A DNA stretch of 64,000 nt. Origin: an uncultured Candidatus Saccharibacteria bacterium (GTDB taxonomy: Bacteria > Patescibacteriota > Saccharimonadia > Saccharimonadales > CAZDQS01). This document shows, one piece after another, positions 1 through 16,467 of the stretch (its first letter is position 1; each line of letters begins with the position of its first letter). Under the pieces are notes generated by a model. That model saw only the letters and a program-made list of their open reading frames with translations. It had not been told where the DNA came from and ran no database searches. The translations under genes were made by a program, and so were the position numbers. The DNA lies in the NCBI GenBank assembly GCA_964507855.1, contig CAZDQS010000005.1, positions 6,599 through 70,598 on the forward strand, written 5' to 3'.

Positions 1-767
1 TTTAAGGCATGGTCTTTGCTGATGTCAAGGAATTCTTTGTCGCTGAAGACGACTTGTTTGTTGAGATTCTGCAGCGCAAACAGCTGGTTGCGTAAGCGCG
101 CGGCCATTTCGTAATCCTGCGCTTTGGCCGCACGTTTCATGTCCCGTTCGATTTCTTTAATAATCTTGTCTTTATGGCCCTCTATATACGCAATGAGTTT
201 GCGTAAGTTGGCGCGATAGTCCGCCAGGCTCGTCCTGCCCTCCTCGAGACCCGGATCAAGTCCCAAGTGATAATACAAAGTCGCCCGTTTCTGCCCCGGA
301 CTCCGGCGTGTCGCATATGGAAATACCCGGCGCAACAGCTTGAGCGCCTGGCGAACCGAATAAGCGCTAAGATACGGCCCAAAATAACGAGCGCCGTCAT
401 CAAGTGGCCGACGTGTGGTCGTGACGGTCGGATAGTCGCTATCATAATCAATCCGGATGTACGTCATACTTTTGTCGTCACGGAGCAAGATGTTGTAGCG
501 CGGCATGTAGCGGCGGATCATTTCCGCCTCGAGAAACAATGCTTCTATTTCGCTCTCGACAACCATCCAATCAACGTCAGCAATCTCCGCCACCAGCGCC
601 TCGGTTTTGGCATCGCGCGTGCGGCTTTTTTGGAAATACTGCCGGACACGGTTGCGCAAGCTTGCCGCCTTGCCAACATAAATAATCTCCCCGGCAGTAT
701 TCTTGTGAAAATATACGCCCGGCTCTTTCGGCAGCTCCGCTAACTTTTTAGTCAGTCGCTCGTTCAC
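1..767 (-). CDS. uvrC: Excinuclease ABC subunit C (UvrC), N-terminal part; the gene runs off the window start
   Basis: Absent from the ORF track because it has a GTG start and runs off the edge. Manual minus-strand translation from GTG at 767 gives VNERLTKKLAELPKEPGVYFHKNTAGEIIYVGKAASLRNRVRQYF...EALFLEAEMIRRYMPRYNILLRDDK (GIY-YIG nuclease signature). It continues to DYEMAARLRNQLFALQNL (UVR domain). An in-frame TAG lies at 779-777, just upstream. Confidence 0.9.
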   Translation of the reverse strand, partial: MNERLTKKLAELPKEPGVYFHKNTAGEIIYVGKAASLRNRVRQYFQKSRTRDAKTEALVAEIADVDWMVVESEIEALFLEAEMIRRYMPRYNILLRDDKSMTYIRIDYDSDYPTVTTTRRPLDDGARYFGPYLSAYSVRQALKLLRRVFPYATRRSPGQKRATLYYHLGLDPGLEEGRTSLADYRANLRKLIAYIEGHKDKIIKEIERDMKRAAKAQDYEMAARLRNQLFALQNLNKQVVFSDKEFLDISKDHAL

Positions 768-769
768 AT

Positions 770-1084
770 CTATATTCTAGCGCTTATTTCTCGTAGAGGC
801 TCATAAAGCTCTACGACAGCGCCAGTCGCCTTAACCGCTAGGCCTGCTAAGCCTCCTGCTATCCTTTGGGCGGGCTGGAAGCTTTGTTCAATCACAACGA
901 GATTCGCAAGGAGACCGCCCTTCGCAAGATACTCGGGGCCACGGTTATCGATAAGTCGTACAAAACTTTCCCGCAAGCGGATCATGCGTGGCAAGTCGGG
1001 CTTCCAGGGGGTTATCTCTTCAGGCTCGAGTCTGGGAAATGGTGGCATCTGCGATCTCGCAATCTTTCCGGCAGTAGCGCCCAC
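770..1084 (-). CDS. Hypothetical small protein; the start is uncertain and an internal ATG at 985 would give 72 aa
   Basis: This is the only same-strand ORF filling the 250-nt gap between trhO and uvrC. The longest form overlaps the trhO 3' end by 65 nt. No recognisable motif. Confidence 0.25.
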   Translation of the reverse strand: MGATAGKIARSQMPPFPRLEPEEITPWKPDLPRMIRLRESFVRLIDNRGPEYLAKGGLLANLVVIEQSFQPAQRIAGGLAGLAVKATGAVVELYEPLREISARI

Positions 1085-1928
1085 CCGTCTGCTCTGTGCA
1101 CTTATTACATATGAGAACTAATCGGTTGCAGTTCTTGTTCAGACAATTTTCGTAATTGCTTGTCTTGGCCTGGCAATGGGCACACTCGGCGATGTCTTTG
1201 GACTTGTCAGAAAAGCGCTGGTTCATACGGCCGTCGAAGATATAAAGCGAGCCTTCCCACAGGCCGTCGTCGCCGTACTTTTCGCCGTATTTCACGATGC
1301 CGCCGTCCATTTGGTAAACCTCTTTGAAGCCGCGCTTCTTCATGAGCGCGCTCAGGACCTCGCAGCGCACACCACCGGTACAATATGTCACGACCGGCTT
1401 GTCTTTGATGTCGTTGTACTTGTCGCTCTCGATTTCCTTCACGAAGTCGCGGGTTGTGCGCGTGTCTGGCACAATTGCGTTCTTGAATTTGCCCACAGTA
1501 GCTTCATACGCATTGCGGCCGTCGAAAAACACCACGTCCTCACCACGTTCTTTCACCAATTGGTGTAGTTGCTCTGGCTTGAGGTGCTTGCCGCCGCCCT
1601 TTACGCCATGCTCATCAACTTCAATTTCATCCGCCGCCTTAAACGCCACCAACTCATCCCGTACTTTGACGCTCAACCGCGGGAATTCATTGCCTGTGCC
1701 GTCGCTCCACTTGTACTGGATGCCACGAAAAACACCAGATCGGTTCATCTCTTGCTTGTAAGCCCGGAGATTATCGATATGGCCGCCCAAGGTCCCATTA
1801 ATGCCGTGTTTGCTAACAATAATCCGGCCTTTGAGATTCAGGCGCACACACAGTTCACGCTGCCAGCGCATCGTCATGTCCGGATCCAAAACCGGCACAA
1901 ACTTGTAGTAGAGAATCACCTTTTGCAT
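1020..1928 (-). CDS. trhO: Rhodanese-domain tRNA uridine(34) hydroxylase (TrhO/YceA, UPF0176 family)
   Basis: 302 aa. The N-terminus ILYYKF...L.GRIIVSKHGINGT and the rhodanese active-site loop YCTGGVRCE are followed by a C-terminal Cys-rich tail, as is typical of YceA/TrhO. Confidence 0.85.
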   Translation of the reverse strand: MQKVILYYKFVPVLDPDMTMRWQRELCVRLNLKGRIIVSKHGINGTLGGHIDNLRAYKQEMNRSGVFRGIQYKWSDGTGNEFPRLSVKVRDELVAFKAADEIEVDEHGVKGGGKHLKPEQLHQLVKERGEDVVFFDGRNAYEATVGKFKNAIVPDTRTTRDFVKEIESDKYNDIKDKPVVTYCTGGVRCEVLSALMKKRGFKEVYQMDGGIVKYGEKYGDDGLWEGSLYIFDGRMNQRFSDKSKDIAECAHCQAKTSNYENCLNKNCNRLVLICNKCTEQTGGRYCRKDCEIADATISQTRA

Positions 1929-2049
1929 AATCTGTTATTTTACCACATTACCCCTGTACTATCTACGCCCCTAAAATCGCAGGGAAACTGATGGTGCTAC
2001 AGCCATCAATCCGGTGAATTTATAGCTCAAGAGCAACCTTGCCAGCCGT

Positions 2050-3528
2050 TTAAGACGACCAGTCGCCTCCGCCTCTCTTCTTCACACCCACTACCTCGTG
2101 CCACTCGTCGTTCTGCTTGACTCGTAGCATTTCCGCTTCCTTCCACGAGCCGCCCTGCTTGACTCGGATAGCAGGCACAAGCTTATAGAACTGTAGATAG
2201 AAAACGTCAAAGACGCTTGAGCCTGTCTTTACCGCATTATGCGACAAAGACAGGGTGGGCCCATGGGCCTGATCATTGACCTCATCTTGACCGTCATAGA
2301 GATTCCATTCATCCGGTTCGGCCTCGCCATCCGCCCATTCCTTGACACGGAATCGACGCCCTAATCGCTCCATACGGAACCACCGTGCGTCGCCATCGCG
2401 CATATTGTAGCCAGTTAAGTCCTTGAGCCAACAATATGGCACTTCATTCAAGCCAGTCGAGAACGGCGGGACGGGACTGACAGTAGCATCGGTGTCGTCA
2501 TCGACCCTAATTGGCCGACGAACAGCCCCCGACTGTATCTCCAACGCGTAGCCACCGCCGAATGAATATTGGTCAAGCCCTTGACCGCCCACATATTCAG
2601 CACAGCCCGCTACAAAATATGTCGATGCGTTCCCGACGGGGTTAGAAACCTTGAATACCATGCCCCACTCTTCAAAGTTCGTGCCGGTGTACCGAATGGC
2701 CGCCCGCGGCACCCCGACGCCCTCACTAGCGTCCTGCGAGGCATCGTGAGAAAACCTAAGAGCACCCTCAGTCCACTCAATACTACTCATACCTTCGCTC
2801 GCATCGGTGAACTCTGCTGGTAACTGTCCGTCCGCACCATTTATCGTGACCACTGGTACTGGCGTCCTCAGTGGCACGTGCGCCCGCAAATCTTCAGTTC
2901 CTACGGCAATAACATCCACAACTTGGTTAATGCGGATTGTTCCGCCCGTTGGCGTTGCGGCATTATTGCCGTACCCAACCTTGAACGTCGTTGCCGTAAA
3001 GGCTCGCTCCCCGCTCATAAATGTCAACCACGTAAAACCATCCGATGAATGCATCGCCTCCCAGGTACTGGTTGCGGCCGTATATTTAATACGCAACCAC
3101 GACGGAATACCAGTCATAAAAGTTGAAAGATTACTGTTGCCTATTTGAGCGCCGCTGCCACCCGCTCGTGCATAGCCGTACACCCGCACGCCTTCATTAT
3201 CATTGTCTGCGTGATACCAGGTAAAGCGGCACGCGTCATTGCCGGAACCCTTGCAGAGCAGATTAATACCGTGGCCCTTCTTGTCACCTACGTCAGTATC
3301 ACACTGTATGGCGATATCTATGTCCCCGCCATGGTCGGGAATCTCATGCGTGACGCCGGGTACATTGTCTGCGCTGCCCGTATTGAAGATAGAGTCATAG
3401 GCCGTACCGTCAGGCAGCGTAATATGCACCCTGCCGTCACTGACGCTATAAGAGCCGCCGGCAAGCGGCGACTCAAACGACCATCCGTCGGGTAAGGTGT
3501 TTCCGTTAAATTCTTCGGTTAATGCCAT
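2050..3528 (-). CDS. Phage tail-fibre / receptor-binding-like protein with two jelly-roll (ConA-like) style domains
   Basis: 492 aa with no signal peptide. The sequence is Gly/Thr/Asp-rich and looks like beta-sandwich. The C-terminus has a repeated motif, IRVKQGGSWKEAEMLRVKQNDEWHEV, of the V-K-x-x-G-x-W type common at the ends of phage minor tail/fibre proteins. It is co-directional with, and 27 nt downstream of, the fibre-like ORF at 3556-3942. Confidence 0.55.
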   Translation of the reverse strand: MALTEEFNGNTLPDGWSFESPLAGGSYSVSDGRVHITLPDGTAYDSIFNTGSADNVPGVTHEIPDHGGDIDIAIQCDTDVGDKKGHGINLLCKGSGNDACRFTWYHADNDNEGVRVYGYARAGGSGAQIGNSNLSTFMTGIPSWLRIKYTAATSTWEAMHSSDGFTWLTFMSGERAFTATTFKVGYGNNAATPTGGTIRINQVVDVIAVGTEDLRAHVPLRTPVPVVTINGADGQLPAEFTDASEGMSSIEWTEGALRFSHDASQDASEGVGVPRAAIRYTGTNFEEWGMVFKVSNPVGNASTYFVAGCAEYVGGQGLDQYSFGGGYALEIQSGAVRRPIRVDDDTDATVSPVPPFSTGLNEVPYCWLKDLTGYNMRDGDARWFRMERLGRRFRVKEWADGEAEPDEWNLYDGQDEVNDQAHGPTLSLSHNAVKTGSSVFDVFYLQFYKLVPAIRVKQGGSWKEAEMLRVKQNDEWHEVVGVKKRGGGDWSS

Positions 3529-3555
3529 GTGGCTAACAGTCCTGTCATCACTAAA

Positions 3556-3942
3556 TTATGATGCGGTCACTATCCATATGTCACCGTCTTCAGAAGCCGA
3601 TGTGTCGGTGCCGTCCTCTGTGCCGACAAAAATGCGACGCCCACTATTCATGAAAATTGCGTAACCTGCGTCTGCGTGAGGGTCGCTTGCCGTCTCGTGC
3701 GCAGTAAGCGCGGATATGTCCGCCTTATTAGCAAGCCCAGGGACTGTGGGCGATGAAGCGGTACCGCCAAGGTCACCCGCAAGCCGCACGACACCCTTCT
3801 GCCCGGCACTCGCGTCAGGCAATGCCGAGTGGATAGCCGCCGATTTCAGGGTACCGTCAGCATTATGAGATTGCTGCAGATATTCGTTTAGTATGTCGCC
3901 CCATGTACCGTCATCGCTTCCGGGGACAGGTAGTCGCGCCAT
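3556..3942 (-). CDS. Phage minor-tail/tail-fibre N-terminal-like protein
   Basis: 128 aa. Its motifs LPVPGSDDGTWGDILNEYL...DGTLK and KGVVRLAGDLGGTASSPTV match those I recall from actinobacteriophage minor tail proteins. Confidence 0.55.
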   Translation of the reverse strand: MARLPVPGSDDGTWGDILNEYLQQSHNADGTLKSAAIHSALPDASAGQKGVVRLAGDLGGTASSPTVPGLANKADISALTAHETASDPHADAGYAIFMNSGRRIFVGTEDGTDTSASEDGDIWIVTAS

Positions 3943-4035
3943 ATGTATTCTTTCTGTTTATTTAATGTGTTTGCGTTAGTGCTTATACATAAGTATAAAG
4001 CATTGTGTAAAGCATTTACAAACACGGGCAAGCGT

Positions 4036-4731
4036 CTACGCTTCGGCTTTTTCTTCTGGGGATCCTTCGCTTTCGTCGCCTGCATTTTCTGTAGGCTCAG
4101 CCTCTGCAGGTGCTTCTGCTTCCGCTGCTCCACCAGCTTCTTCATTAGCTGCTTGCAAAGCACTTGGCTCATAAACAGTAGCGAGCACTTGCTCGGGTTC
4201 GGTGACAATCTCCACACCCTCGGGAATCTCAAGCTCCGCAACCGTAACACTATCTCCGGGGTTTTCTAGGCCTTCCCCGCTAAATGTGAGTACTTCAGGA
4301 AGCTTGCTCGGCAACGCTTTCACTTCTACCGTCTCAAGCCCGCGCAAGACAATCAAGCCAGCCTTCTCTGCGGGCGTTGATTCGTTATCACCCTCAAACC
4401 GGATGTGGACTGGCACTTCAGCCTCAACCTTTTCGTTTGCCTTGACCGCGTTGAAGACGACGTGGCGCAGCGTGTGCTTTTTCGGTTCGAAATCGACATC
4501 CTTAATCATTGCCATGTAGTGCTGTTTGCCGACCTGTAACTGCACTGGCTGGTTCTTTCCGGCCTCCCGGTACGCCCGGATCACGTCTTGGTATGGCGCC
4601 ATAACGTGCACCGAATCCTTGCCATGGTCATGAATAACAGCCGGCACAATACCTTGGGTACGCAAGCCGCGGACTTGCTTGCCTAAAACCTCGCGTTTTT
4701 CGAGCATGAGAGTAAGATTACCGTCGCTCAT
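4036..4731 (-). CDS. rplY: 50S ribosomal protein L25 / general stress protein Ctc, with an acidic Ala/Glu-rich tail
   Basis: The true start is the ATG at 4731 (MSDGNLTLMLEKREVLGKQVRGLRTQGIVPAVIHDHGKDSVHV...), with a GGAGGG Shine-Dalgarno just upstream. The 450-aa track ORF is an artefactual N-terminal extension that overlaps dedA on the other strand. Confidence 0.85.
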   Translation of the reverse strand: MSDGNLTLMLEKREVLGKQVRGLRTQGIVPAVIHDHGKDSVHVMAPYQDVIRAYREAGKNQPVQLQVGKQHYMAMIKDVDFEPKKHTLRHVVFNAVKANEKVEAEVPVHIRFEGDNESTPAEKAGLIVLRGLETVEVKALPSKLPEVLTFSGEGLENPGDSVTVAELEIPEGVEIVTEPEQVLATVYEPSALQAANEEAGGAAEAEAPAEAEPTENAGDESEGSPEEKAEA

Positions 4732-4818
4732 CAGAATTCCCTCCTTCAGATTAGTATAACTATTATACCAAATCGACCCATTAGACTGGACGGAACCGCC
4801 GTTACCCATTAATCTAGT

Positions 4819-5478
4819 ATGAGCATGTTTGATATTGAAGCGATTATCCAATGGGGCGGCATATTTATAATCTCCGCGATAGTCTTTGCCGAATCCGGCC
4901 TGCTGGTTGGTTTTTTCCTGCCGGGTGACACGCTGCTCTTCGGTGCTGGCCTGGCTGCATCGCAGGGTGAATTTTCTCTGCCGCTCCTTATTATTGCCGT
5001 CGTCGTCGCGGCCATCATTGGTGACAATGTCGGCTACAGTATCGGGCGCCGCGCCGGCTCCCGGATTTTCAGCAAAAAAGACGGCATATTGTTTCGCGCT
5101 GAATACATGGATAAAGCAGAAGAGTTTTATAAAAAGCACGGCGGCAAGACGATTGTCATTGCCCGGTTTACGCCAATTGTGCGCACCTTTGCGCCTGTCG
5201 TCGCCGGCGCGAGCAAGATGCCGCGCGAACGATTTATGTTCTTCAATATCTTTGGCGGCCTCCTGTGGGGCGCCGGTATGCCGCTGCTTGGCTACTTCAT
5301 CGGCAGTAAGATCCCGCACCTCGATGAATATATCGAGGTCGTTATCCTCGGTGTTGTCGTTGCCAGCATTGGCCTTGCACTTTTGCACCTGCTCAAAGAC
5401 CCCAAAACCCGCGCTATTCTATGGGACCGCTTCAAACTAGGCCTTCGGAACATTGCACTCAACAAGCGCGTAGATTAA
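4819..5478 (+). CDS. dedA: DedA/VTT-family membrane protein
   Basis: 219 aa, multi-pass. Contains the motifs FAESGLLVGFFLPGDTLLF and IARFTPIVRTFAPVVAG, characteristic of DedA (SNARE-associated/VTT domain). Confidence 0.85.
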   Translation: MSMFDIEAIIQWGGIFIISAIVFAESGLLVGFFLPGDTLLFGAGLAASQGEFSLPLLIIAVVVAAIIGDNVGYSIGRRAGSRIFSKKDGILFRAEYMDKAEEFYKKHGGKTIVIARFTPIVRTFAPVVAGASKMPRERFMFFNIFGGLLWGAGMPLLGYFIGSKIPHLDEYIEVVILGVVVASIGLALLHLLKDPKTRAILWDRFKLGLRNIALNKRVD

Positions 5479-5534
5479 CACACCTCTCTAGCAACCATTG
5501 CTTCTCTTGCTGCAATAAGGTTATATAGTTAATC

Positions 5535-6143
5535 ATGAGGTTACATAGAGTACCTGGTGAGTTCCCCACGCGACATGTGGCGCTGCCAGAAATAAGCAGC
5601 GAATCAGTATTGCCAATTGGGACACGCATAACCGATATTGATTCTCCAGAGGCTCTCAACACTCTTTTTATTGCCCAGTCCTTGGCAATGATACGAAAAA
5701 TTCGGCCCGGTAATGACGAGGCCGAAGATGTACGATCCATTGAACTGCTTCACAATAGCTCAGCCTATGAAGATGATCTTTTCGACAATAGCTGGGATCC
5801 TGGAGCTTCGAAAGCAGAGGCACATGTAGTAATCCCCTACACACCGCCATCTATCTTGTGGATTAGAGATATTGAGATCGACGAAGGTGTGGCGACCCGA
5901 CAATCTTATGGGCTCGTGCGGCGTCACGTGCCTACACCAACGGGATCCGCCGCAATATTGTGGACGGTGGCTAATGTGTGGCTGGAGGCACCGGATTCAC
6001 GGGACGCTACATTCTTGCGCGCCAGAAAAGCATTTATAAAGCCTACCATCCTCGAAAGCGAGGAGCATTTACAGGCCAAGATACATTCAAATCGACGAGC
6101 GAGAACTTCGGCCGCACATATTATAGGCAGAATCGCTCTATAG
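5535..6143 (+). CDS. Hypothetical protein
   Basis: 202-aa ORF with no recognisable motif. It is convergent with uvrA, and the two 3' ends overlap by 6 nt. Confidence 0.4.
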
Positions 6144-8948
6144 CATTTTGGAGAGGAATTGGCCGGTGTACGACTTGCCGTTCTTGGCAACTTCTTCCGG
6201 TGTGCCGGCAGCAATAACTTGACCGCCTGCGCTGCCACCCTCGGGTCCCATATCAATAATAAAGTCCGCCGCCTTAATGACGTCCAGGTTGTGCTCAATA
6301 ACAACCATGCTGTTGCCGGCATCAACGAGCGCCTGCAGAACATTGAGCAATTTGTCGACATCTGCCATGTGTAAGCCGGTGGTCGGCTCATCAAGAATGT
6401 ATAGCGTTCGTCCTGTCGGTCGCCGCGAAAGCTCGGTTGCCAACTTGATACGCTGCGCTTCACCGCCAGACAACGTGGTGGCTGGCTGACCGAGCCTGAT
6501 GTACCCTAAGCCCACATCAACCAGTGTCTGTAACTTGCGGGCAATGGCCGGAATGTTCTCAAAGAACTCAAGTGCCTGCTCACACGTCATATCGAGCACA
6601 TCGCTAATCGTCTTGCCTTTATAGCTGATCTCTAGCGCCTCGCGGTTGTAGCGCTTGCCTTTACATACTTCACACGGCACATACACATCTGGCAAGAAGT
6701 GCATTTCAATTTTGATAATCCCGTCGCCCGTACAGTTTTCGCAGCGGCCACCCTTGACGTTGAAGCTGAATCGTCCGGGCGAATAACCCCGCAACTTGGC
6801 TTCGGGAACCGTCGCAAACAATTCACGAATGGGCGTAAACAATCCGGTATAGGTAGCTGGATTGGAGCGCGGTGTGCGACCAATAGGTGATTGATCGATA
6901 ACAATTGCTTTGTCGAGATGCTCAATCCCTTCAATGTCATCGTGCTTGCCTGGCACGAGATTGGCCCGATGGAGCCGCGCTTGCAACTCTTTCGCCAAAA
7001 TGTCATTGATGAGGCTGGATTTGCCAGAGCCCGAAACACCACTGACCACGACAAGCTTGCCAAGTGGAATCTCAACATCAACACCGCGGAGGTTGTTTTC
7101 GCGAGCGCCTTTCACCGCAATCACCTTGCCGTTACCGGTGCGACGCTTGCGCGGCACAGTGATTGTTTTTTTACCGCTCAAGTACTGCCCTGTGATACTT
7201 TGCTCATTTCGCGCTACCTCATCAGGCACACCTTGCGCAACTATCTGCCCGCCGTGGACGCCGGCACCCGGGCCAATATCAAGCAAGTAATCAGCCGTCC
7301 GAATAGTGTCCTCGTCATGTTCCACGACAATGACCGTATTGCCAAGGTCACGCAGGTGCTTCAACGTACTAATCAACCGCTCGTTATCGCGCTGGTGCAG
7401 ACCAATAGAAGGCTCGTCCAAGACGTAGAGTACGCCCTGCAAGCCAGAACCAATCTGCGTCGCCAGGCGAATACGCTGCGCCTCACCACCAGAAAGGGTC
7501 GTCGCACTCCGGGCAAGATTAAGATAATTAAGGCCCACGTCTTGCATGAATTTCAGCCTCGCACAAATTTCTTTCAGTATTTGCTGGGCGATATGCTTTT
7601 CCTTTTCGTTCAGCGGCATGTTGGTAAAGAAATCGAGCGCGTCATCAATCGACAGCTCACACAGATCCATGATCGACTGCCCGGCGACTGTAATTGCCAG
7701 GACTTCGGGCTTCAAACGCCGGCCTTTGCAGGCGTGACATGGACGCTCTTGCATGAAGCGCTCAATATCCCGCCGCATAAAATCACTCTCAGTTTCCTTA
7801 TGGCGTCGCTCCAGGTTCGGTATGACACCTTCGTACGTCGTATCAAAGCTACGACCAACACCAAGCGACACTTTGTAGGTTTCGTTGCCGGTACCATAGA
7901 GAATCTTGTCCAGCTGGTCAGTAGTAAGTTCCGAGGTTGGTACATGCAAACTGAAGTTGTGGCGGTCAGCGACAGCTTGCAGCTTCTTCATATACCAGGC
8001 GTCGGTGTTAATACGGTTAAAAGGACGTATCGCCCCTTCGGCAATCGTCAACCGGCCATTGGGGATAACAAGCTCCGGGTCGACCTCAAGCCGCGAGCCA
8101 AGGCCGGTACAAACCGGACATGCGCCATGCGGACTGTTAAAGCTAAAGGTCCGCGGCTCCAGCTCCGGAATCGCCACGTCAGGGTGGTCGATACAAGCGT
8201 ACATCAAGCTATAGTGGAACACCTCATCGGTATCGGCATTGAGCACTGCTACTTTGCCGTCTGCCACGTCCAGCGCCTGTTCAACTGATTGCGCCAGACG
8301 GCCACGGTTCTCTTCATTATTGACTAAGCGATCAGCAACAATTTCAATCGTATGCTTGTAGTTCTTATCAAGTTCCGGAAATTCATCAAGTGCATACACC
8401 ACACCATCCACGCGGGCACGGGCAAAGCCCGCTCTCGTGTATTGCTCCGGGATGTGCTCAAAGGCACCCTTCTTGTCTGTCACGACCGGTGCGAGAACAA
8501 TAAGCCGAGCACCTTCCGAAAGCGAAGCAATCTGGTCAACAATAGCTGTTGACGTCTGCCGTGTGACCGGCTTGCCGCAGACGGGACAATGCGGCACACC
8601 AATCCGTGCAAACAATAATCGAAGATAGTCATAAACTTCCGTAACCGTCGCCACCGTCGAGCGCGGGTTACGGCTGGTAGATTTCTGGTCAATGCTAATC
8701 GCCGGTGACAAACCATCAATTTGATCGACATCCGGCTTTTCCATCATGCCCAAGAATTGCCGGGCGTAGGAACTCAAGGACTCGACGTACCGCCGCTGCC
8801 CTTCGGCGTAAATAGTATCAAAGGCCAAACTAGACTTGCCCGAACCACTCAAGCCCGTAATGACCACTAGCTTTTCGCGGGGAATCTCAACATTAATATT
8901 TTTGAGGTTATGCTCCCGCGCCCCCTGAACCTTTATCGAGTCGCTCAT
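6138..8948 (-). CDS. uvrA: Excinuclease ABC subunit A (UvrA)
   Basis: 936 aa. Two ABC ATPase modules ([14 protein letters not shown] and [13 protein letters not shown]; LSGGEAQR twice) plus the zinc-finger Cys clusters CPVCG and [10 protein letters not shown]. Confidence 0.97.
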
Positions 8949-8992
8949 AAACGGACCGATTATACATGAAAATCAGAGAAAAATCTACTGTC

Positions 8993-9607
8993 CTACCGGG
9001 TCACAAACGTTCGCCTGGGTTCCGTCGCCCGACAAGGGGTATTCATGTACGGTTCCCGATACCTAAAACAACTATCTACGGCGCGCCTTCCAACGGTGTA
9101 GCCCCGAACAGAAAATCCCTGTTCTTTCGTGTAATGAATCCTGTGCTCCGGCATTGCACCTCGCTGGCCTATAGGGCGCCGGGCCACGCTCATGTGATAG
9201 CTTCCAATATACTGCGGTATTCTTATTCCTAATTTCTCGTGGATGATATCGCTGCTCAATCGCCGGGCATCCATCATCTGATCATTCGGCTCGATAGCTA
9301 CACCAGCAAACTTCTTATATGGTTGCAGTGTTCGCTCGGCTGGACGGAGAGTACTGCCTATAATACTCAAGCCACCCATTTGGCTGAGTATTTCACTTTC
9401 TGCTTCTCTCAACTTGCCGATTTCGTGCCACGCCAGGCCGGCATTAGCGATTTCTTCAGGATAAACAACCGCGACGTGTGCATCGCGTAAATCTATAGGC
9501 TCACCGATTCCACTCGGGATTCGTTTTGCAAGGTTCCTGAGGCCCTGGGTTACTTGAATATCAAATGCTACATAGATTCCCTGTGGGGGCGTTTCGGGAT
9601 TTGCCAT
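8993..9607 (-). CDS. Hypothetical protein, speculatively 2H-phosphoesterase-like
   Basis: 204 aa. Two His-centred motifs about 95 aa apart (AHVAVVY and YHMSVAR) loosely resemble the paired H-x-T/S-x motifs of LigT-like 2H phosphoesterases. The first motif is degenerate, so this is only a guess. Confidence 0.4.
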   Translation of the reverse strand: MANPETPPQGIYVAFDIQVTQGLRNLAKRIPSGIGEPIDLRDAHVAVVYPEEIANAGLAWHEIGKLREAESEILSQMGGLSIIGSTLRPAERTLQPYKKFAGVAIEPNDQMMDARRLSSDIIHEKLGIRIPQYIGSYHMSVARRPIGQRGAMPEHRIHYTKEQGFSVRGYTVGRRAVDSCFRYREPYMNTPCRATEPRRTFVTR

Positions 9608-9767
9608 GCCTCGCTCCTTCTTGATTGTTTTTATTTGAAGAAGAAGTGCTTCTGTTTTACTGTATCAAACTTTACATTGTATAGCGAATGGCTTTACCTG
9701 TTATATTTACAGCGTTTGCAGCCCTGTTGCTTCAGTATGTTTATTTTTATAAAAAGGCGTATATTGA

Positions 9768-10190
9768 ATGATAAGTATGAAACATCACCTCAAGGTCCTG
9801 CTGACTGACATAGCTGGTGTCTTTTTGATCATCATCTCGCCAATAACAGGTATGATCCCTGGACCCGGCGGCATCCCCATCTTCCTGGCCGGCCTGGGAC
9901 TGCTTGCCATTAACCACGAGTGGGCGCGGAAACTCCTAAAGTTCATCACCACCACAGGTGCCGCAATGATTAAACGGTTCTTCAGTGAGAACCCACTTAT
10001 CAAGTGGCTCTACGACGTCTTAAGTGTCTTGGCGGTTTTTATCGGTGCTTGGATTATCCGCGACGTGACATCAAACATCCTAGAAGCCGTAGCTTTGGTT
10101 CTTATATTTGCTGGTCTAGCACTGTTTCTCGGCAACCGCAAACGTTTGGAGAATCTCATTCGCTGGACGCGCAATAAGCTGAAGCGATAA
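9768..10190 (+). CDS. Small membrane protein, PGPGW-type
   Basis: 140 aa with 3-4 predicted TM helices. Contains the motif MIPGPGGIPIFLAGLGLLA, similar to the PGPGW transmembrane family. An alternative start lies at 9777. Confidence 0.6.
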   Translation: MISMKHHLKVLLTDIAGVFLIIISPITGMIPGPGGIPIFLAGLGLLAINHEWARKLLKFITTTGAAMIKRFFSENPLIKWLYDVLSVLAVFIGAWIIRDVTSNILEAVALVLIFAGLALFLGNRKRLENLIRWTRNKLKR

Positions 10191-10191
10191 C

Positions 10192-11628
10192 TTATATCTC
10201 GTCGATATCAGGCATGATACTCTGGCCGTACAGCTGCAATTCTTCAAGCAAATATTGCTGGTGAGCTGTCAGGTTCGGCTGCGCGGCAAGCTCCTGCAGG
10301 CGGGCAAAGTAACGCGCAAGGCGGCTCTGCTGCTTGCCACCCACAAGCCGCTGCGTGCGATACTTTTCCCATGCAGCACGCTCTTCATCAGAAAGTGATT
10401 TTGGAAAATTACGTGCTTTGTACAATGGCAGTAATGCCTGGAGTCGTTTGTCAGCCAACTTGTCTGAAAAGTCCATAACCTCCTGGGGTTTGGCAGCACG
10501 AACAGCACGCACAACAGTCTTATCCCGACTATCGATAAAGCCATCATACAACTGTCCGTCGACCTCCTGCTCACTGCTTATCCAGCTGGACTGCCGCTCT
10601 TTTTCAATGAGGCTGAGCGCTTCTAGGACGTGCGCCGGGAAGTCTTTTATTGCTGCTAGCTTTTTACGATTGGCTTCAATGACAGCGAGATCTAGCTGGA
10701 GCCGCTCCTGGCTGTCCTTATCCAGCACGCCAAGCGGCGCCACGGCAGGGCATTTGGTAAATACCAGTGGCTTTACCGGTAAGCGCACCCCTTCTTCATC
10801 ACGCCTCAGCCGCCAGACCTTCGCCACCTCCTGCGGCGTCATATCACTGAACTGGGAGGGGTCGTGGCGCAAATCATACACGAGCACGCCCTGCTGCTTC
10901 GGATGGTCGGCCAGCTTAACTGCAACGGTCGTCTTCTCTTGCTCGCTCGGATACCGACCGGAAGTATAGACAAACGGCTGCCCGGCATTAACTAGCTTTG
11001 CAACCTCCCGTTTGTCTCGAAGGCTTAATAAATACTCAAACAATTTCGTCTGCTTATTGTAGATTAATCGTGCAACAGCAATGCTCGCATGGACGTCACT
11101 CAGCGCATCGTGTGCGTTCGCGTGGTCAAGCTTGTTCACTGCAGTCAACAGCTCGAGTCGGTTTGTGGGTGCACCAGTACTGTCAAAAGGCCACTCTATA
11201 CCACCCGGACGAAGCGCCCGCGTCATCCGCACGACATCCAACAAATCCCACTTGCCTCGACCGTCTTGCCACTGCCATTCGTATGGGTCGTAGAAGTTGC
11301 GATAATGCAGGTAGCGCATGAATTCATCATCAAACCGTATGGAGTTAAAGCCAACAAAGATTGTGTCAGGAGTGGCAATCTCTTCATGGAACTGCTTTAG
11401 AAACGCTGCTTCGGTTATACCGTCTGCAATTGCAGCCTGTGGCGTGATACCCGTAATCAGCACAGCGTCGGGCTCCGGCACTATATCATCGGTAAGCTTG
11501 ATGAGTATGTTGAGTGGTTCACCGACAGGATTGAGCGCCATATCAGTCCGCTGGCCGGCAAACTGCATGATCCGCTGCTCACGCGGATTGACGCCCGAAG
11601 TCTCCAAGTCATAAAAATAAAACGTCAT
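10192..11628 (-). CDS. sbcB: Exodeoxyribonuclease I (SbcB)
   Basis: 478 aa, which is ExoI length. DEDDh exonuclease motifs are present: FYFYDLETSG, FVGFNSIRFDDEF and HDALSDV. Confidence 0.9.
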   Translation of the reverse strand: MTFYFYDLETSGVNPREQRIMQFAGQRTDMALNPVGEPLNILIKLTDDIVPEPDAVLITGITPQAAIADGITEAAFLKQFHEEIATPDTIFVGFNSIRFDDEFMRYLHYRNFYDPYEWQWQDGRGKWDLLDVVRMTRALRPGGIEWPFDSTGAPTNRLELLTAVNKLDHANAHDALSDVHASIAVARLIYNKQTKLFEYLLSLRDKREVAKLVNAGQPFVYTSGRYPSEQEKTTVAVKLADHPKQQGVLVYDLRHDPSQFSDMTPQEVAKVWRLRRDEEGVRLPVKPLVFTKCPAVAPLGVLDKDSQERLQLDLAVIEANRKKLAAIKDFPAHVLEALSLIEKERQSSWISSEQEVDGQLYDGFIDSRDKTVVRAVRAAKPQEVMDFSDKLADKRLQALLPLYKARNFPKSLSDEERAAWEKYRTQRLVGGKQQSRLARYFARLQELAAQPNLTAHQQYLLEELQLYGQSIMPDIDEI

Positions 11629-11682
11629 ACCACTTTAGGATATGACGTTTTACGATGTAACGCTAGCGATTATGCGTGTAGT

Positions 11683-14025
11683 CTAGAACGATACCGGACG
11701 GAGTCGCCGGATGACCACGTAGGCACCAGCTGGAGTTGCCAGAACAAGTGCGCTTAGCCCAGCAAAGGCTACGTTGAGCGTTCGGCCGGATGCACCTGCC
11801 CATGGTCGGAGTACTGCGTTGCGGACCCGTTCAAAGGTGCCCAGGTCGTTCTTCACCTCGACCGGCGTTACCGTCGTGGTCCTGCCACCGCCGCGGTCGA
11901 CACGAGTCACCTCAAGCTCACATTCGCCGTTCGGCATTGTTGTTGTGTCAACTTCCGTCTCAAATGGTGCGCTTGATGACCTAACCGTTTGACCATTACA
12001 GAGAGTGACCTCTACTCGCTCCACTTCGCTTTCTTCATTCTTCGGAACACCAGGGCCGACAACACTTGGACCGGATATGGTCGTACCTGGCGTCACGCGG
12101 ACTGGCTCAGCGTTCGGATTCTTCGGCTTGACTGTCACGGGTGGCTTGTTTGGCTTCGGGTTTTCGGGTTGCTGTGATGGGTCGGGGTCAGGATCAGGAT
12201 CAGGGTCGGGGTCAGGATCTGGTGCTGGCGTAGGAGCCGCGTTCGTGGTAACCACAAGTTGCGTGCTTTGTGCGCTCACATTATCTGCCCAGTCCTTTGC
12301 CGCTACCGTGTAGGTATATGTGGTGGAAGGAGAAACACCAGTGTCTTTGTAGGAGTTTGTGGCAGTTGTAGCAATCTCTTCACTATTTCGGTACACGATG
12401 TATGCTACATCTTCACCCTGCTTGTTGTCCGTACTTTTGTTCCAGACAAGTCCTACTTCGTTATGTGAGTACGCACTTGTTTTCAGGCCAGTTGGCACTG
12501 AAGGAGCTTCGGTATCAGGCTGTTCGGCGGGTGGTGCATTGACCGTTACGTGTACTACGTTACTTTCCGTCTCATTGCCTGCTGCGTCGCGTACGACCAC
12601 CCGGAAGGCAATACTGCCGCTTAAGCCCTCTGTCTCGAAGTTATGATTATAGGGGCTGCTTGTGTCAGTCTTCAGTAGCACGTTACCGTTGTAGAACTTC
12701 ACGGATTCGATATCTCCGCTGTCATCAGTAACTACGGCCACGAGGTCAATATTAGTGCCTGCAGTTACCGTAGTTGGGAAAGCCGTAAAGGATGTTACTA
12801 CCGGTGGAGTCGTGTCAGCTGGATCATTTACCGTCAAGGTCTTCGGAGCGCTGGTCGTGTTGTTGCCAGCCTCATCATACGCCTTTGCTGTCAGATTATG
12901 TGTACCGGCAGCTACGCTTGTCGTTGAGTAAGTATAGCTCCAATTCGGGCCTGTTGTATCAGTATGTATCAGCTGCGTACCGTTATAGAACTCGACTTTA
13001 GTTACACCCTCATTGTCCGATGCTGTAGCTGTGAGCGTCACACTCTCGCCGGCAGTGATCGTAGCCGGGCTCACCGTCAGATTAACATTAGTCGGCGCCT
13101 CGGTATCAGGTTCTTCAACTTGTTCTTCGTTTACTGTTATCGTGACGGGGCTACTGTCAGCGTTATTGCCAGCTGCATCAAATGCACGGGCAAAAACAGC
13201 ATGTTGACCAGACTTGCCTGTCGTACTGTAACTATGTGTATATGGTGCGTTTGTGTCCTCGCCGAGCTTGGTCGAGCCTTCGTAGAACTCTATCCTTTGG
13301 ATACCAACGTTATCTTGGGCGGTAGCCGTGAGGGTTACCGACTCTCCTGCCGTAACTGTTGTCGGTTCGGCACTGATTGTTACTTCGGTTGGCTTGGTCG
13401 TATCGGGCGGCGCAGAAAGAGCAACCGTTGCACTTTGCTTCGTGCCCGCCTCGTTAATAAACTGCGTAGGATTGTCGGGATCAACGCGCGTCAACTGGGT
13501 TTCGCTACCAAAAGCCACGCTTGCACTACCACTGCTTGCAAGTGCCTTGAAGGTCACCTTAGCAATAAGCTTGTCTCCGGATATTAGGCTCGTATGATAG
13601 CGCATAATCGTCACACTGCCGCTGCCGCCAGTGCTGACAACATCATTCGGAAATGCGCTCTCAGTTCCATCGATTGAAACAAATTGCAGCAAGTTTGACG
13701 GATAGTTGAGGTATACTTCTACACCATCAACGCCCACCGGACTATCCATACGTACGTCAAGCGTTACATTTTGGCCTTCTACAACAGTTGGGCTTGCCGG
13801 GACGAGTGAAAGCGTCGCACTTCCTGCTGCGCGAGTCTGCAACCAGATGAAAAACGCACCCACTACGCCTAAGGTTATGGCGAGTACAAGATAGGTCTTC
13901 CAGGGACGGGTTTTTGAGGCGAATAGGCTTTTGCGGGCTGTTTTACTGCTGGTTCTTGATGTTCGTGCCGCCATGGTGCTCGGGTTCCTTTTCTTTCCTT
14001 GTGATTTTTTGTGTTGAGTTTTCAT
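11683..14025 (-). CDS. Surface protein: N-terminal signal-anchor, cohesin-like domain, 3 tandem Ig-like repeats, FN3, (PD)7 linker, Ig-like domain and C-terminal TM tail
   Basis: 780 aa. The basic N-terminus and TM end in WLQTRAAGSATLSL. The cohesin-like block spans aa ~68-182 (G.NVTLDVRM...VDGVEVYLNYP..LQFVSID...GDKLIAKVTFKALASSG). Three ~95-aa repeats carry T.TAGESVTLTATA.DN.G....EFY.G. An FN3-like block (PTGL...YIVYRN...YTYTVAAKD) follows. The C-terminus is LRPWAGASGRTLN, a TM helix, then IRRLRPVSF. Confidence 0.85.
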   Translation of the reverse strand: MKTQHKKSQGKKRNPSTMAARTSRTSSKTARKSLFASKTRPWKTYLVLAITLGVVGAFFIWLQTRAAGSATLSLVPASPTVVEGQNVTLDVRMDSPVGVDGVEVYLNYPSNLLQFVSIDGTESAFPNDVVSTGGSGSVTIMRYHTSLISGDKLIAKVTFKALASSGSASVAFGSETQLTRVDPDNPTQFINEAGTKQSATVALSAPPDTTKPTEVTISAEPTTVTAGESVTLTATAQDNVGIQRIEFYEGSTKLGEDTNAPYTHSYSTTGKSGQHAVFARAFDAAGNNADSSPVTITVNEEQVEEPDTEAPTNVNLTVSPATITAGESVTLTATASDNEGVTKVEFYNGTQLIHTDTTGPNWSYTYSTTSVAAGTHNLTAKAYDEAGNNTTSAPKTLTVNDPADTTPPVVTSFTAFPTTVTAGTNIDLVAVVTDDSGDIESVKFYNGNVLLKTDTSSPYNHNFETEGLSGSIAFRVVVRDAAGNETESNVVHVTVNAPPAEQPDTEAPSVPTGLKTSAYSHNEVGLVWNKSTDNKQGEDVAYIVYRNSEEIATTATNSYKDTGVSPSTTYTYTVAAKDWADNVSAQSTQLVVTTNAAPTPAPDPDPDPDPDPDPDPSQQPENPKPNKPPVTVKPKNPNAEPVRVTPGTTISGPSVVGPGVPKNEESEVERVEVTLCNGQTVRSSSAPFETEVDTTTMPNGECELEVTRVDRGGGRTTTVTPVEVKNDLGTFERVRNAVLRPWAGASGRTLNVAFAGLSALVLATPAGAYVVIRRLRPVSF
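12178..12222 (-). repeat. Hexanucleotide (GAYCCN)-type tandem repeat encoding the (Pro-Asp)7 linker
   Basis: The plus strand reads tgggtcggggtcaggatcaggatcagggtcggggtcaggatctgg, which on the minus strand encodes PDPDPDPDPDPDPDP. Confidence 0.9.
12532..13395 (-). repeat. Three tandem in-frame Ig-like domain repeats of ~95 aa each, inside the 780-aa surface protein
   Basis: By hand alignment, aa 211-498 form three copies of P..V.....P.T.TAG..V.L.A...D..G....(E/K)FY.G......D...P......T.......H......A.D.AGN.....P.T.TVN. Confidence 0.8.
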
Positions 14026-14043
14026 GCTGTTTCTTCTTATGCG

Positions 14044-14889
14044 CTATAAGCTTCGGAGCGCATTTGTGACGATGGAGACATCACCGATGGTAATCTTGCC
14101 GTCACCGTTCAGGTCACCATTACCTCGGGTTACTGTTGCAGGTGGATTGCGTAAGCTGTTTAGGATGATTGAGATATCACCGATAGTAACTCGCCCGTCA
14201 CCATTTACGTCACCGATGACTTCTGTGTCACCACCAGAGAAGGTAATCGTGCTGTTCGTCTTTCCGCCCAGGATATCACTGCTATCTGTTGAACGGGCCA
14301 CTATAGAGCCATTATCGATGGAAACTGTGGCGGTGCCTGAACTTGCCAGTGCCTTGAACGTAACTCTTGCTATTAGCTTGTCGCCACTGATACTCTTTGT
14401 GCTACTCTCGGGGTCAGCATAACGTACGATGGTGACCTTTCCGTTACCGCCCGTACACCAGTTCGGGATGGGGTTACTTTGATGTTCCACACACTTCGAG
14501 AGCGCGCTGTTAGTGCTATCAATGCCGACAAACTCCAGCTTGTCCGTAGGATAGGTAAGGCTGGTATGGACAACATTGACCGGATCGCTACCGCTATTCA
14601 TACGGAGGTCAACAGTTACGTTCGATCCAGCCTCTACACTCGCAGAACTCAATGTCAGTGTCGCGTTGCCGGCTGCATAGCTTCTGGTCAAGAGGATTGC
14701 TGCCGCAATAACGCCTACGCCAACCAGCCCAAGAGCAATAAGCTTCCATGGCTTTGCTTTCTGTGTAGGGAACAGTCTACTGCGGCTGGTTTTGCTGGAT
14801 TTTTTTGATTTCACTGTTTGGTTCCTTTGCTTTATGCTGTGCTTCTTAGTGGCGTGTCCTTTTGATGTAGTCTGTCTTCGTGCTGGCAT
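14044..14889 (-). CDS. Surface protein: N-terminal signal-anchor, cohesin-like domain and C-terminal type-I-like dockerin
   Basis: 281 aa. It has the same N-terminal architecture as its neighbours (TRSYAAGNATLTLSSASVEAGSNVTVDLRMNS...GDKLIARVTFKALASSG). The C-terminus has two calcium-loop-like segments, GDVNGDGRVTIGDISIILNSL and GDLNGDGKITIGDVSIVTNAL, which is the dockerin duplicated F-hand pattern. Confidence 0.8.
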   Translation of the reverse strand: MPARRQTTSKGHATKKHSIKQRNQTVKSKKSSKTSRSRLFPTQKAKPWKLIALGLVGVGVIAAAILLTRSYAAGNATLTLSSASVEAGSNVTVDLRMNSGSDPVNVVHTSLTYPTDKLEFVGIDSTNSALSKCVEHQSNPIPNWCTGGNGKVTIVRYADPESSTKSISGDKLIARVTFKALASSGTATVSIDNGSIVARSTDSSDILGGKTNSTITFSGGDTEVIGDVNGDGRVTIGDISIILNSLRNPPATVTRGNGDLNGDGKITIGDVSIVTNALRSL

Positions 14890-15152
14890 TTTGTTTATCC
14901 ATACTTCCCGTTAAATCAACAGCATGCACAGCAACTTCTCAGAATGACGCACGACAGAAGCACGACCTATATACTCCTGCCTGCCAACTAGTGGCTTTTG
15001 GTCTTCTTTGCTACTACTGTGTTTAGTTTTCATATCGTGGTTACGCATGGTTCGCATGCTCGTTAATACTTACCACTACTGTAGCGCACTTCATGCAGGC
15101 GTCAATAGTTTTTATGCTTACTTTTGTGTTTTTCAGAGTTTGCATAGGTACC

Positions 15153-16361
15153 TCAGAAGGAGATTGGTTTAAACCTCCGGATTGCTAGCACAGCGCCAAC
15201 GGCCAGTACCCCCAGGGCAGGTACCGAAATTATGGCATTCAGCACCCGACCTGATGTCCCTGCCCACGGCTTCAAGATTGAGTTCCGGACTGTCTCAAAA
15301 GCACTTAATTTGTTGTCGATCGTAACTTCACGGCTCGATACAGTCGTTGAGTCATCGGCATTCACGGTACGCAACGTAATGGTATAAGCCCCGTTCGCGA
15401 ACGTCGTCGTATCCAGATCTGTTTCAAAAGGCGCCTTCTTCATTGTTGTTACCAGGCGGCCGTTTACAAGCAACTCGACCCGTTCGGTATTTGCATCTGC
15501 AGTTTTGCTCTTTACCTTTATGACACCGGATATTTTATCCAGCTCGTTGAGGCTATTGAGCTCGTCGTTCACATCATCGGTATTTCCGCCACCGGACGAA
15601 TCATCGCCTGCGTCGTCTGAATTGCCCTGCTGATCTTCACCTGAATCATCAGAAGAGCCCGGCTGGTTACTTCCGCCGCCCGCTGATGGCCTCGGCGAAG
15701 TAGGTGCTGGAGATGGCGATCCGGAAGGAGGAGTCGGGTTGGTCGGTGGATTCGGTGTTGCAGGCGGCGGAGAAGGTGGTGGCGTGCTTGATTGTGTCGT
15801 AAAGGTAACGGTTGCGCCGTTCATAACACCTGCTTCGTTAATAAACTGTGTGGGATTGTCAGGATCGGCGTGTGTCAGCTCGGTATTGGCACCGAAAGTT
15901 ACATTGGCGCTGCCAGTGCTTGCCAGCGCTTTGAAAGTAACGCGCGCAATGAAAACATTGCCGCTTACGAGGCTTGTGGAGTAGCGTATAACTGTTATGG
16001 ATCCGCTGCCACCGCTATTGACAACATCTATCGGAAAGGCGCTGCCGGACGTGCTTGTAGAAACAAACTGAAGGTGGGTCGCAGGATAACTAAGATATAT
16101 CTCCGCGCCGTCGACGCCAACCGGACTGTTCATGCGTATATCAAACGAGACATTTTGTCCGGTTACGACTGTTGGACTGGCGGGAGAAAGAGACAGGGTA
16201 GCGCTCCCAGCGGCTCGGGTCTGGAACCAAAAGAAGAGGACGAGAACGGCGCCCAAGGCAATAAGCAATACAGATAACGGGCCCCATGACTTAGCCTTAT
16301 ACTTGCTTGGAAGAACTGATGTTTTGCGGGCTCTGGATACTTTTTTGTTTCGGGATGCCAT
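15153..16361 (-). CDS. Surface protein: N-terminal signal-anchor, cohesin-like domain, Pro-rich and acidic linkers, Ig-like domain and C-terminal TM tail
   Basis: 402 aa. Starts FWFQTRAAGSATLSLSPASPTVVTGQNVSFDIRMNSPVGVDG.... Has a PPPSPPPATPNPPTNPTPPSGSPSPAPTSP linker. The C-terminal domain and tail are homologous to those of the 780-aa protein (APFETDLDTTTFANG...ETVRNSILKPWAGTSGRVLN, a TM helix, then IRRFKPISF). Confidence 0.85.
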   Translation of the reverse strand: MASRNKKVSRARKTSVLPSKYKAKSWGPLSVLLIALGAVLVLFFWFQTRAAGSATLSLSPASPTVVTGQNVSFDIRMNSPVGVDGAEIYLSYPATHLQFVSTSTSGSAFPIDVVNSGGSGSITVIRYSTSLVSGNVFIARVTFKALASTGSANVTFGANTELTHADPDNPTQFINEAGVMNGATVTFTTQSSTPPPSPPPATPNPPTNPTPPSGSPSPAPTSPRPSAGGGSNQPGSSDDSGEDQQGNSDDAGDDSSGGGNTDDVNDELNSLNELDKISGVIKVKSKTADANTERVELLVNGRLVTTMKKAPFETDLDTTTFANGAYTITLRTVNADDSTTVSSREVTIDNKLSAFETVRNSILKPWAGTSGRVLNAIISVPALGVLAVGAVLAIRRFKPISF

Positions 16362-16467
16362 CCTAATTTATCCTGTTATTGGTTTACTTTTTGCTTAAGG
16401 TAAGTGTAAACGTTTTTTGCGATAACCACAAGCCTAAAGCCTAGCTGCCCTCATGGAGCTTATTGGC

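Follow-up and report, generated by a model that had tools for sequence, protein, structure and literature searches.

Between rplY and trhO, in a 64-kb stretch of Candidatus Saccharibacteria DNA (contig CAZDQS010000005.1; the whole stretch is referred to here as the window), lie two genes, A (3556..3942, minus strand; a fibre/adaptor-like open reading frame, ORF, of 128 amino acids, aa) and B (2050..3528, minus strand; an ORF of 492 aa), which are a lineage-specific, compositionally native and intact occupant of a variable slot. A phage receptor-binding ancestry of both genes, and specifically an actinophage one, is well supported, and their domestication for host recognition is plausible. The explanation we favor is that A and B constitute a stand-alone, two-part receptor-binding module that is kept by selection and used by an epibiont to recognize the envelope of its Gram-positive (actinobacterial) host, a reading to which we would assign a probability of roughly 0.45. 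As we picture it, A would be a short fibre or adaptor, built from an N-terminal attachment module, a DUF5907-like shaft repeat and a C-terminal docking module, and B would be the binding head, with two ConA-like lectin sandwiches, most likely binding cell-wall glycans, followed by three short beta-hairpin repeats by which B may attach to the C-module of A. The assembly would presumably be a trimeric fibre that is deployed by the cell, binds glycans and thereby recognizes the host. B probably derives from the gene pool of Actinobacteria-infecting phages, the pair seems to have been resident long enough to acquire the codon usage of its host, and the two would represent one variant of a recurrent family of isolated cassettes, each pairing an A-family gene with a swappable glycan-binding or glycan-degrading protein.

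Phage relatives of the two genes

A preliminary description of this locus had called the pair phage-fibre-like and had linked it to phages of Actinobacteria, quoting from A the motifs LPVPGSDDGTWGDILNEYL...DGTLK (residues 4-33) and KGVVRLAGDLGGTASSPTV (residues 49-67); the two ORFs, the motifs quoted from them and the flanking genes trhO and rplY are all present as described, and the relatives of each gene bear out both the fibre likeness and the actinophage link. A three-module build of A is evident from alignments A2 and A3, namely an invariant N-terminal stretch of 33 residues, a variable shaft and a C-module ending GDxWIDTS. The N-module (3844..3942, minus strand; residues 1-33, MARLPVPGSDDGTWGDILNEYLQQSHNADGTLK) always stands at the extreme N-terminus, with R3, P5, D10, W14, G15, L18, N19, L22, D29 and G30 invariant. 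It is shared, at 65-72% identity over 34-36 residues from residue 1 (tblastn E 1e-11 to 2e-7), with proteins of five Streptomyces phages (BRock gp186, GiJojo gp34, and also pSt2308, Alone3 and LuckySocke), the C-terminal parts of which match tail-fibre and tail-spike PHROGs. The module is very rare in IMG/VR, where it is found in three contigs among 2.9 million viral contigs; all three have a high guanine and cytosine (GC) content, and the module there heads a protein encoded directly after the tape-measure gene of a 14.9-kb integrase-bearing element (L100) and pectate-lyase-like or large tail proteins in the viral contigs L105 and L106. The homologues of A as a whole form 158 clusters, mostly from cellular contigs, and those that carry a name belong to Saccharimonadales, Saccharibacteria, Microsaccharimonas or TM7.

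Two of these phage loci deserve a separate remark. BRock gp186 (L096 5791-6738) is annotated as a 'collagen triple helix repeat-containing protein' from a start that overlaps a tRNA-Lys gene; its conserved N-module (MTRLPIPDSD...) begins 70 codons downstream of that start, which is probably mis-set, and the gene itself sits among tRNA genes, outside the tail module. The very small, tailed-phage-like L100 (1-14885, IMGVR_UViG_3300036846_000907; 14.9 kb, GC ~0.69) is arranged in the order terminase, portal, protease/capsid fusion, major tail protein, tape measure, 207-aa protein headed by the A-type N-module, 390-aa protein and integrase, and may be a miniature prophage or satellite.

The central shaft repeat of A (3709..3834, minus strand; residues 37-78, KGVVRLAGDLGGTASSPTVPGLANKAD) is DUF5907-like: Pfam DUF5907 (PF19264) aligns with residues 42-68 at 24.3 bits (E 3.5e-5), under the gathering cutoff of 27, and the same family is precomputed for many A homologues, with P0025 and P0030 exceeding the threshold among those rescanned. 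The central motif also matches PHROG 8780, a 'minor tail protein' family, at E 1.2e-11 and 128 phage records in all, and the repeat is 60-70% identical over ~36-40 residues to minor tail proteins of Gordonia phages such as EMoore gp36. In relatives of A the shaft is made of DUF5907, PTR, BppL_N or collagen repeats. The C-module (3559..3690, minus strand; residues 85-128, SDPHADAGYAIFMNSGRRIFVGTEDGTDTSASEDGDIWIVTAS) is kept in full-length A homologues, and is 73% identical to the C-terminus of an A-like protein from a second cassette (L088); it has no match in cultured phages and is found in cassette relatives alone. With regard to a diversity-generating retroelement, a repeat scan of 1850-4150 revealed no template-like copy of the C-module.

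For B, Pfam and NCBIfam give no match and PHROGs only a family of unknown function. Domain 1 (2914..3528, minus strand; residues 1-205) is predicted to be a ConA-like/LamG-like beta-sandwich and domain 2 (2173..2868, minus strand; residues 221-452) a second beta-sandwich, with a disordered insert at ~344-372 and RRPIRVDD, LxExPY, RxKEWAD and WxxYDGQDE as its most conserved motifs. The AlphaFold 2 (AF2) model, for which seven homologues were used, has a predicted local distance difference test score (pLDDT) of 71 and a predicted template modeling score (pTM) of 0.70, and is all-beta, with two sandwiches and short terminal hairpins. Searched with this model, Foldseek returns ERGIC-53, galectin, ConA-like and LamG lectins and the accessory (C-terminal) sandwiches of GH43 proteins from the PDB, and ConA-like phage proteins, putative receptor-binding proteins and minor tail proteins from the viral models, with E 1e-8 to 1e-5 for the lectins and phage ConA-like proteins. 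The Foldseek probability is 1.00, and the TM-score is 0.53-0.60 when normalized to single-domain targets (ERGIC-53, 4gkx) and 0.2-0.3 over the two-domain query.

B ends (2053..2172, minus strand) in three 14-residue repeats of the pattern (I/V)(R/K)xKxxGxW, namely AIRVKQGGSWKEAEM, LRVKQNDEWHEVVG and VKKRGGGDWSS (alignment A4), which are seen in the DNA as a 42-nt direct repeat (D1; 2096-2124 and 2138-2166, 76% identity). These tandem motifs had already been pointed out in the preliminary description; they are real, number three copies and are conserved in three homologues, occurring within the family only in the four mid-GC members P0001 (the cluster representative of the window protein), P0007, P0130 and P0134. 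Their proposed association with actinophages stands only weakly: the C-terminus of B itself finds nothing beyond marginal cyanophage matches, and it is the version of the repeat in a sister cassette that matches tail-region glycoside hydrolases of Streptomyces phages, at E 0.03-0.3.

The closest relatives of B are 47-53% identical to it and reside in phage contigs, and it is their settings that tie the gene to virions, although this genomic-context evidence rests on few loci. P0002 (51% identity; L001), on a 48.9-kb contig of 72.5% GC that is also present in IMG/VR, lies between capsid-proximal structural genes and a head-tail adaptor, and P0005 (47% identity) is encoded straight after the major head protein in a phage of the SU10/P22-portal type; for the capsid proteins of both contigs, matches are confined to phages of Gordonia, Mycobacterium, Arthrobacter, Microbacterium and Cellulosimicrobium. 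P0004 comes after a tail-fibre-repeat protein, and in P0135 a BppL_N, a Phage_tail_C and an Ig domain are fused to the two-domain unit of B in one chain. Where L002 has its B homologue, the related Arthrobacter phage Brad carries a tail-fibre gene, gp16, immediately after its capsid gene; gp16 was considered as a B homologue and rejected (hhalign probability 0.1). An A-B fusion of the Rosetta-stone kind was likewise rejected, the A-family hidden Markov model (HMM) matching no B-family representative, and the similarity between the N-termini of A and P0135 is not significant (E 0.45); P0135 ties B to generic tail-fibre domains only. A 135-136-aa 'virion structural protein' (PHROG 3758) is encoded upstream of the B homologue in the high-GC phage contigs L001 (6428-6838) and L090 (522-929), directly so in the latter; the two copies share 50% identity, the protein does not occur in the window, and a conserved partnership between it and B is possible in phages.

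Close homologues of B are rare. Seven clusters of them were found, an exhaustive search brings the number to 287 representatives, of which ~60 have both domains, and B is the top of its family by leave-one-out profile score (663 bits); pattern scans for B gave one IMG/VR contig (which is L001) and one short metagenome contig. It could be argued that A and B are an ordinary cellular carbohydrate-binding pair without any real link to phages, their motifs being promiscuous repeats of surface proteins. The ConA-like fold is after all universal, domain 1 of B recurs by itself 3-6 times in giant, probably cellular, proteins of 1000-2500 aa, the DUF5907 score falls under the Pfam cutoff, and no B homologue was found in cultured phages (tblastn, 50,697 records). 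However, full-length B homologues at 47-53% identity are found inside phage structural modules, the N-module of A matches the N-termini of phage fibre and spike proteins at E 1e-11, and P0135 joins tail-fibre domains to B. These phage contexts largely refute such a reading, and we regard it as very improbable.

The slot between rplY and trhO

The two genes are arranged head to tail on the same strand, A before B, with 27 nt from the stop of A to the start of B and no terminator-like site seen between them, because of which their co-transcription is likely. The upstream border of the slot is rplY (L25/Ctc; 4036..4728, minus strand; Pfam Ribosomal_L25p and TL5_C) and the downstream border trhO (1020..1928, minus strand; Pfam UPF0176_N, Rhodanese and Rhodanese_C). 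The 93-nt AT-rich spacer between rplY and A contains a promoter-like site, TTGTAA-18-TATACT (3992..4021, minus strand), found by consensus scan only. As trhO is 74-81% identical to its counterparts in metagenome-assembled genomes of Candidatus Saccharibacteria, the source organism is by this measure a Saccharibacterium, of the type that had been supposed. Outside Saccharibacteria, the genome scan matched the gene only in records titled Arthrobacter, Specibacter, Corynebacterium, Bifidobacterium and unclassified Actinomycetota (loci L072-L087), where trhO is 57-62% identical to it; a transfer of trhO between epibiont and host phyla is possible.

The order uvrA, VTT/DedA, L25, gap, trhO is conserved in ~47 species representatives, among which the L25-trhO gap spans ~150 bp to 6.5 kb. 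In 40 of the ~47 species the gap holds one or two MsbA/MdlB-type ATP-binding cassette (ABC) exporter genes on the opposite strand, and in 4 it holds essentially nothing; across the 47 related species, an HMM search of the gap turned up no relative of A or of B. No MsbA/MdlB-type exporter gene is present anywhere in the 64-kb window, in which A and B, each in a single copy, occupy 1929-4035 instead. The same arrangement is seen in an independent assembly (L003), with 4 single-nucleotide polymorphisms (SNPs) in 7,398 bp, an identical B and an A of 98% identity (G111S, S117A). Of the four SNPs, three are clustered in a 19-nt stretch of the A C-module (3594-3612); two are non-synonymous and one synonymous, which is too few to call selection, and the three are not adenine-specific. 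The preliminary description had held that a strain-specific pair with pseudogenized relatives would speak against a domesticated one. The pair is indeed lineage-specific, but it is not pseudogenized, and a divergent equivalent exists in L088.

Nothing in the composition of the locus sets it apart. The GC profile is flat across the A/B region, B does not depart from the rest of the window in its GC content at third codon positions and its codon usage (z -0.1 and 0.2), and the values for A lie within range. Neither att-like flanking repeats nor an integrase were found, and there is no tRNA gene in 1-12000; the features expected of an integrated prophage or a recent genomic island (integrase, att repeats, tRNA target, atypical composition) are thus not observed. 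Annotation for phage genes covers ~19.7 kb of the 64-kb window, the rest being represented by an ORF list, and on the left the window reaches only ~1 kb beyond trhO. From trhO to 19.7 kb on the right there are no capsid, terminase, integrase or tail genes, in agreement with the isolation first described, and the genes in that direction are cellular (VTT/DedA, uvrA, exonuclease I, Ig/cohesin/dockerin proteins, Obg and a LysM-CHAP hydrolase). Neither A, B nor the proteins of sister cassettes match the defence models of PADLOC-DB 2.0. Elsewhere in the window, 11683-17133 and 18542-19693 encode probable surface proteins, namely a 780-aa Big_7 Ig-domain protein and three cohesin and/or dockerin proteins, then the LysM-CHAP peptidoglycan hydrolase, and a plus-strand ORF of 2,099 aa lies at 24378-30677.

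The question then arises whether the pair is an inert leftover, either the last genes of a decayed prophage (an alternative that had been raised from the outset) or a phage-borne moron in a recombination-prone slot, undegraded and without a function in the cell. Its lineage-specific distribution and the variability of the slot (ABC exporter genes, nothing, or A/B) are consistent with such an origin, as are the virion-type character of proteins that lack export signals and the fact that B-family relatives are rare and mostly phage-borne. Against this, neither an integrase, an att repeat, a tRNA nor any further phage gene was found, and the native composition implies a long residence, yet both ORFs have stayed intact and no other member of its family scores as high as B. 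A further weakening comes from the recurrence of the cassette described below, as random decay would not leave the same isolated subset of fibre plus binding protein at unrelated loci. On balance we consider an inert leftover unlikely.

Recurrent cassettes and their probable retention

A-family genes elsewhere are followed by unrelated beta-rich proteins, often with overlapping stop and start codons. The cassette in L088 comprises the A-like protein mentioned above, a 160-aa protein and a B homologue with the same terminal repeats. In L091/L092, on a contig that NCBI names Saccharimonadales, the partners are an fn3 protein of 450 aa and a 248-aa protein; in L093 they are a 429-aa protein and a DUF4082 protein; in L103 (6584-9971) there is a glycerophosphodiester phosphodiesterase (GDPD) protein of 518 aa, just after TatA/TatC and between TatC and ParA; and in L101 (285-4496) a 75-aa protein is accompanied by a 762-aa protein whose C-terminus resembles the 429-aa partner of L093. 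The partners have mosaic N-terminal segments in common. L088 and L091/L092 are of Saccharibacteria type and no taxon is set for L093, L101 and L103; the stand-alone A-family cassettes sit mostly in Saccharibacteria-type contigs. No phage genes lie beside the sister cassettes in flanks of 8-10 kb, where the neighbourhoods consist of housekeeping genes. The L088 cassette adjoins an ABC ATPase with ~70% identity to the ones that other Saccharibacteria carry between rplY and trhO, which suggests that the cassette may occupy the same neighbourhood.

The manner in which A and B might be joined is also indicated by these relatives. The terminal repeat motif of B is found at the ends of partner proteins in the sister cassettes L091 and L093 as well, and a partner with terminal (R/K)xxxGxW repeats is present in all four cassettes that have the A C-module and in none of the three without it, albeit in a small sample. 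Because of this co-occurrence we infer that the repeats dock onto the C-module. Furthermore, as the same functional subset recurs in the form of isolated, intact and compositionally native cassettes, retention by selection is most likely, and is to be preferred over random prophage decay. A role in host recognition would be biologically plausible because lectin-like, fn3 and dockerin surface proteins are essential for the epibiotic growth of the cultivated Saccharibacterium Southlakia epibionticum (PMC10633639).

Another possibility to be weighed is that the pair serves a phage-like particle encoded elsewhere (a prophage, a satellite, or a system with dispersed loci resembling a tailocin or a gene transfer agent, GTA), or is a reservoir of host range for phages that infect Saccharibacteria. 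The N-module of A is of the virion-attachment type in phages, the missing export signals would fit a cytoplasmic assembly onto a particle, mosaic and swappable partners are typical of fibre loci, and there is the precedent of the Rhodobacter capsulatus GTA, whose head spikes and tail fibres are encoded apart from its main cluster. Particle genes are, however, absent from the annotated ~19.7 kb of the 64-kb window and also from 10 kb on either side of L091 and L093, and the confinement of the N-module to three of 2.9 million IMG/VR contigs, as opposed to 158 protein clusters mostly from cellular contigs, also speaks against it. We would therefore give a particle encoded elsewhere only a small chance.

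Without question, several observations also weigh against the stand-alone host-recognition module that we prefer. A and B are absent from the slot in all 47 related species and a pattern scan for B in 185,579 GTDB species representatives found none, which argues that theirs is not a core function in host interaction. In a neighbour-joining tree B of the window groups with high-GC phage-type proteins (52-53% identity) and not with the other Saccharibacteria-type copy, and that these two Saccharibacteria-type copies are not sisters suggests turnover. The 4 SNPs between the two genomes are too few for a ratio of non-synonymous to synonymous substitution rates, and L091 and L092, being identical, are likewise uninformative. 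A simple hydropathy test, as distinct from a dedicated predictor, showed no signal peptide, membrane segment or sorting motif in A, B or the partners in sister cassettes: the maximum Kyte-Doolittle value over 10 residues within the first 40 is 0.44 for A and 0.37 for B, compared to 2.32 for the control L088_324, and the 19-residue maximum is <1.0. Missing export signals are what virion proteins would show, and they leave the proteins with no known route to the cell surface. Last, the AF2 monomer of A is poor (pTM 0.28; the best block is a helix at 13-25, with pLDDT ~82-85), Foldseek returned nothing with this low-confidence model, and PDB sequence searches were empty for A and for B. It is because of the absent export signal and the lineage-specific distribution that we describe domestication as plausible and no more strongly than that.

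A wider proposal would be that Saccharibacteria carry particle-free, phage-derived receptor-binding cassettes as a class, in which an A-family adaptor is combined with swappable lectins or wall-degrading enzymes (the ConA-like B, GDPD, fn3 with beta-helix, DUF4082, and proteins resembling glycoside hydrolases), that the epibiont uses them to recognize or breach the host envelope, and that host range evolves by swapping heads with the phages of the host. We offer this as a conjecture that is more probably wrong than right by a wide measure.

Relation to known systems

Orphan or domesticated phage receptor-binding genes are known already; what would be new is such an isolated cassette in Saccharibacteria, of which we found no published description, just as our literature search found no paper that mentions DUF5907 or that describes tail-fibre-like cassettes in Saccharibacteria or Patescibacteria. 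Little is understood of how ultrasmall epibionts choose their hosts, and what purchase there is comes from type IV pili and a small number of adhesins (PMC10633639). If cells use these cassettes, they would offer a compact determinant of host specificity that can be read from sequence; the binding head is common to phages of Actinobacteria, the known hosts of cultivated Saccharibacteria, and epibiont and host viruses would then draw on one pool of receptor-binding modules. If the cassettes instead serve an unseen phage-like particle, they would point to unrecognized particle genes in reduced genomes, and should the pair prove a mere remnant there would be nothing unusual in it, such that the interest of the locus hinges on deployment by the cell.

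Among phage proteins, those of Streptomyces phages BRock (gp186) and GiJojo (gp34) resemble A in having the N-module at the extreme N-terminus, followed by a variable fibre or spike domain. Unlike A and B they are single chains, in which the N-module runs directly into a beta-sandwich or pectate-lyase-like domain, with neither a C-module nor a B-like partner, and their genes lie in a tRNA-rich non-structural region of ~113-kb phages. The minor tail proteins of Gordonia phages (EMoore gp36; PHROG 8780) have only the DUF5907-like shaft repeat in common with A; they are at least 740 aa long, are encoded in complete tail modules, and contain neither the N-module nor the C-module. The uncultured actinophage-type contigs (IMG/VR UViG_3300004463_000741, which is L001/L007, and Logan SRR21547722, which is L002) carry the full two-domain unit of B at 47-53% identity, but there its gene is embedded in a complete virion module, flanked by those for the major capsid protein and the head-tail adaptor, with Ala/Pro-rich or other tails in place of the (R/K)xKxxGxW repeats and no adjoining A-like gene.

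Measured against modular receptor-binding proteins in general, the pair has homologues in virion modules, a shared N-terminal attachment module and, by prediction, a carbohydrate-binding fold, but it is not encoded together with tail or baseplate genes. In the anchor-branch concept of such proteins, a small first protein gives the docking site for a second receptor-binding protein. The modular and two-component receptor-binding proteins of Klebsiella phages (PMC8262889) follow a like logic, in which a conserved N-terminal attachment module is combined with a swappable specificity module; they have no sequence relationship to A and B and are part of a virion, whereas no virion genes accompany A and B, for which docking is suggested by the co-occurrence of modules. 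The envelope proteins of Southlakia epibionticum (PMC10633639) differ from A and B in being described as envelope-associated, with no phage-fibre modules reported, where A and B have no export signal; they are, however, Saccharibacteria proteins with glycan-binding domains, as B would be, and glycans of the host are their proposed targets.

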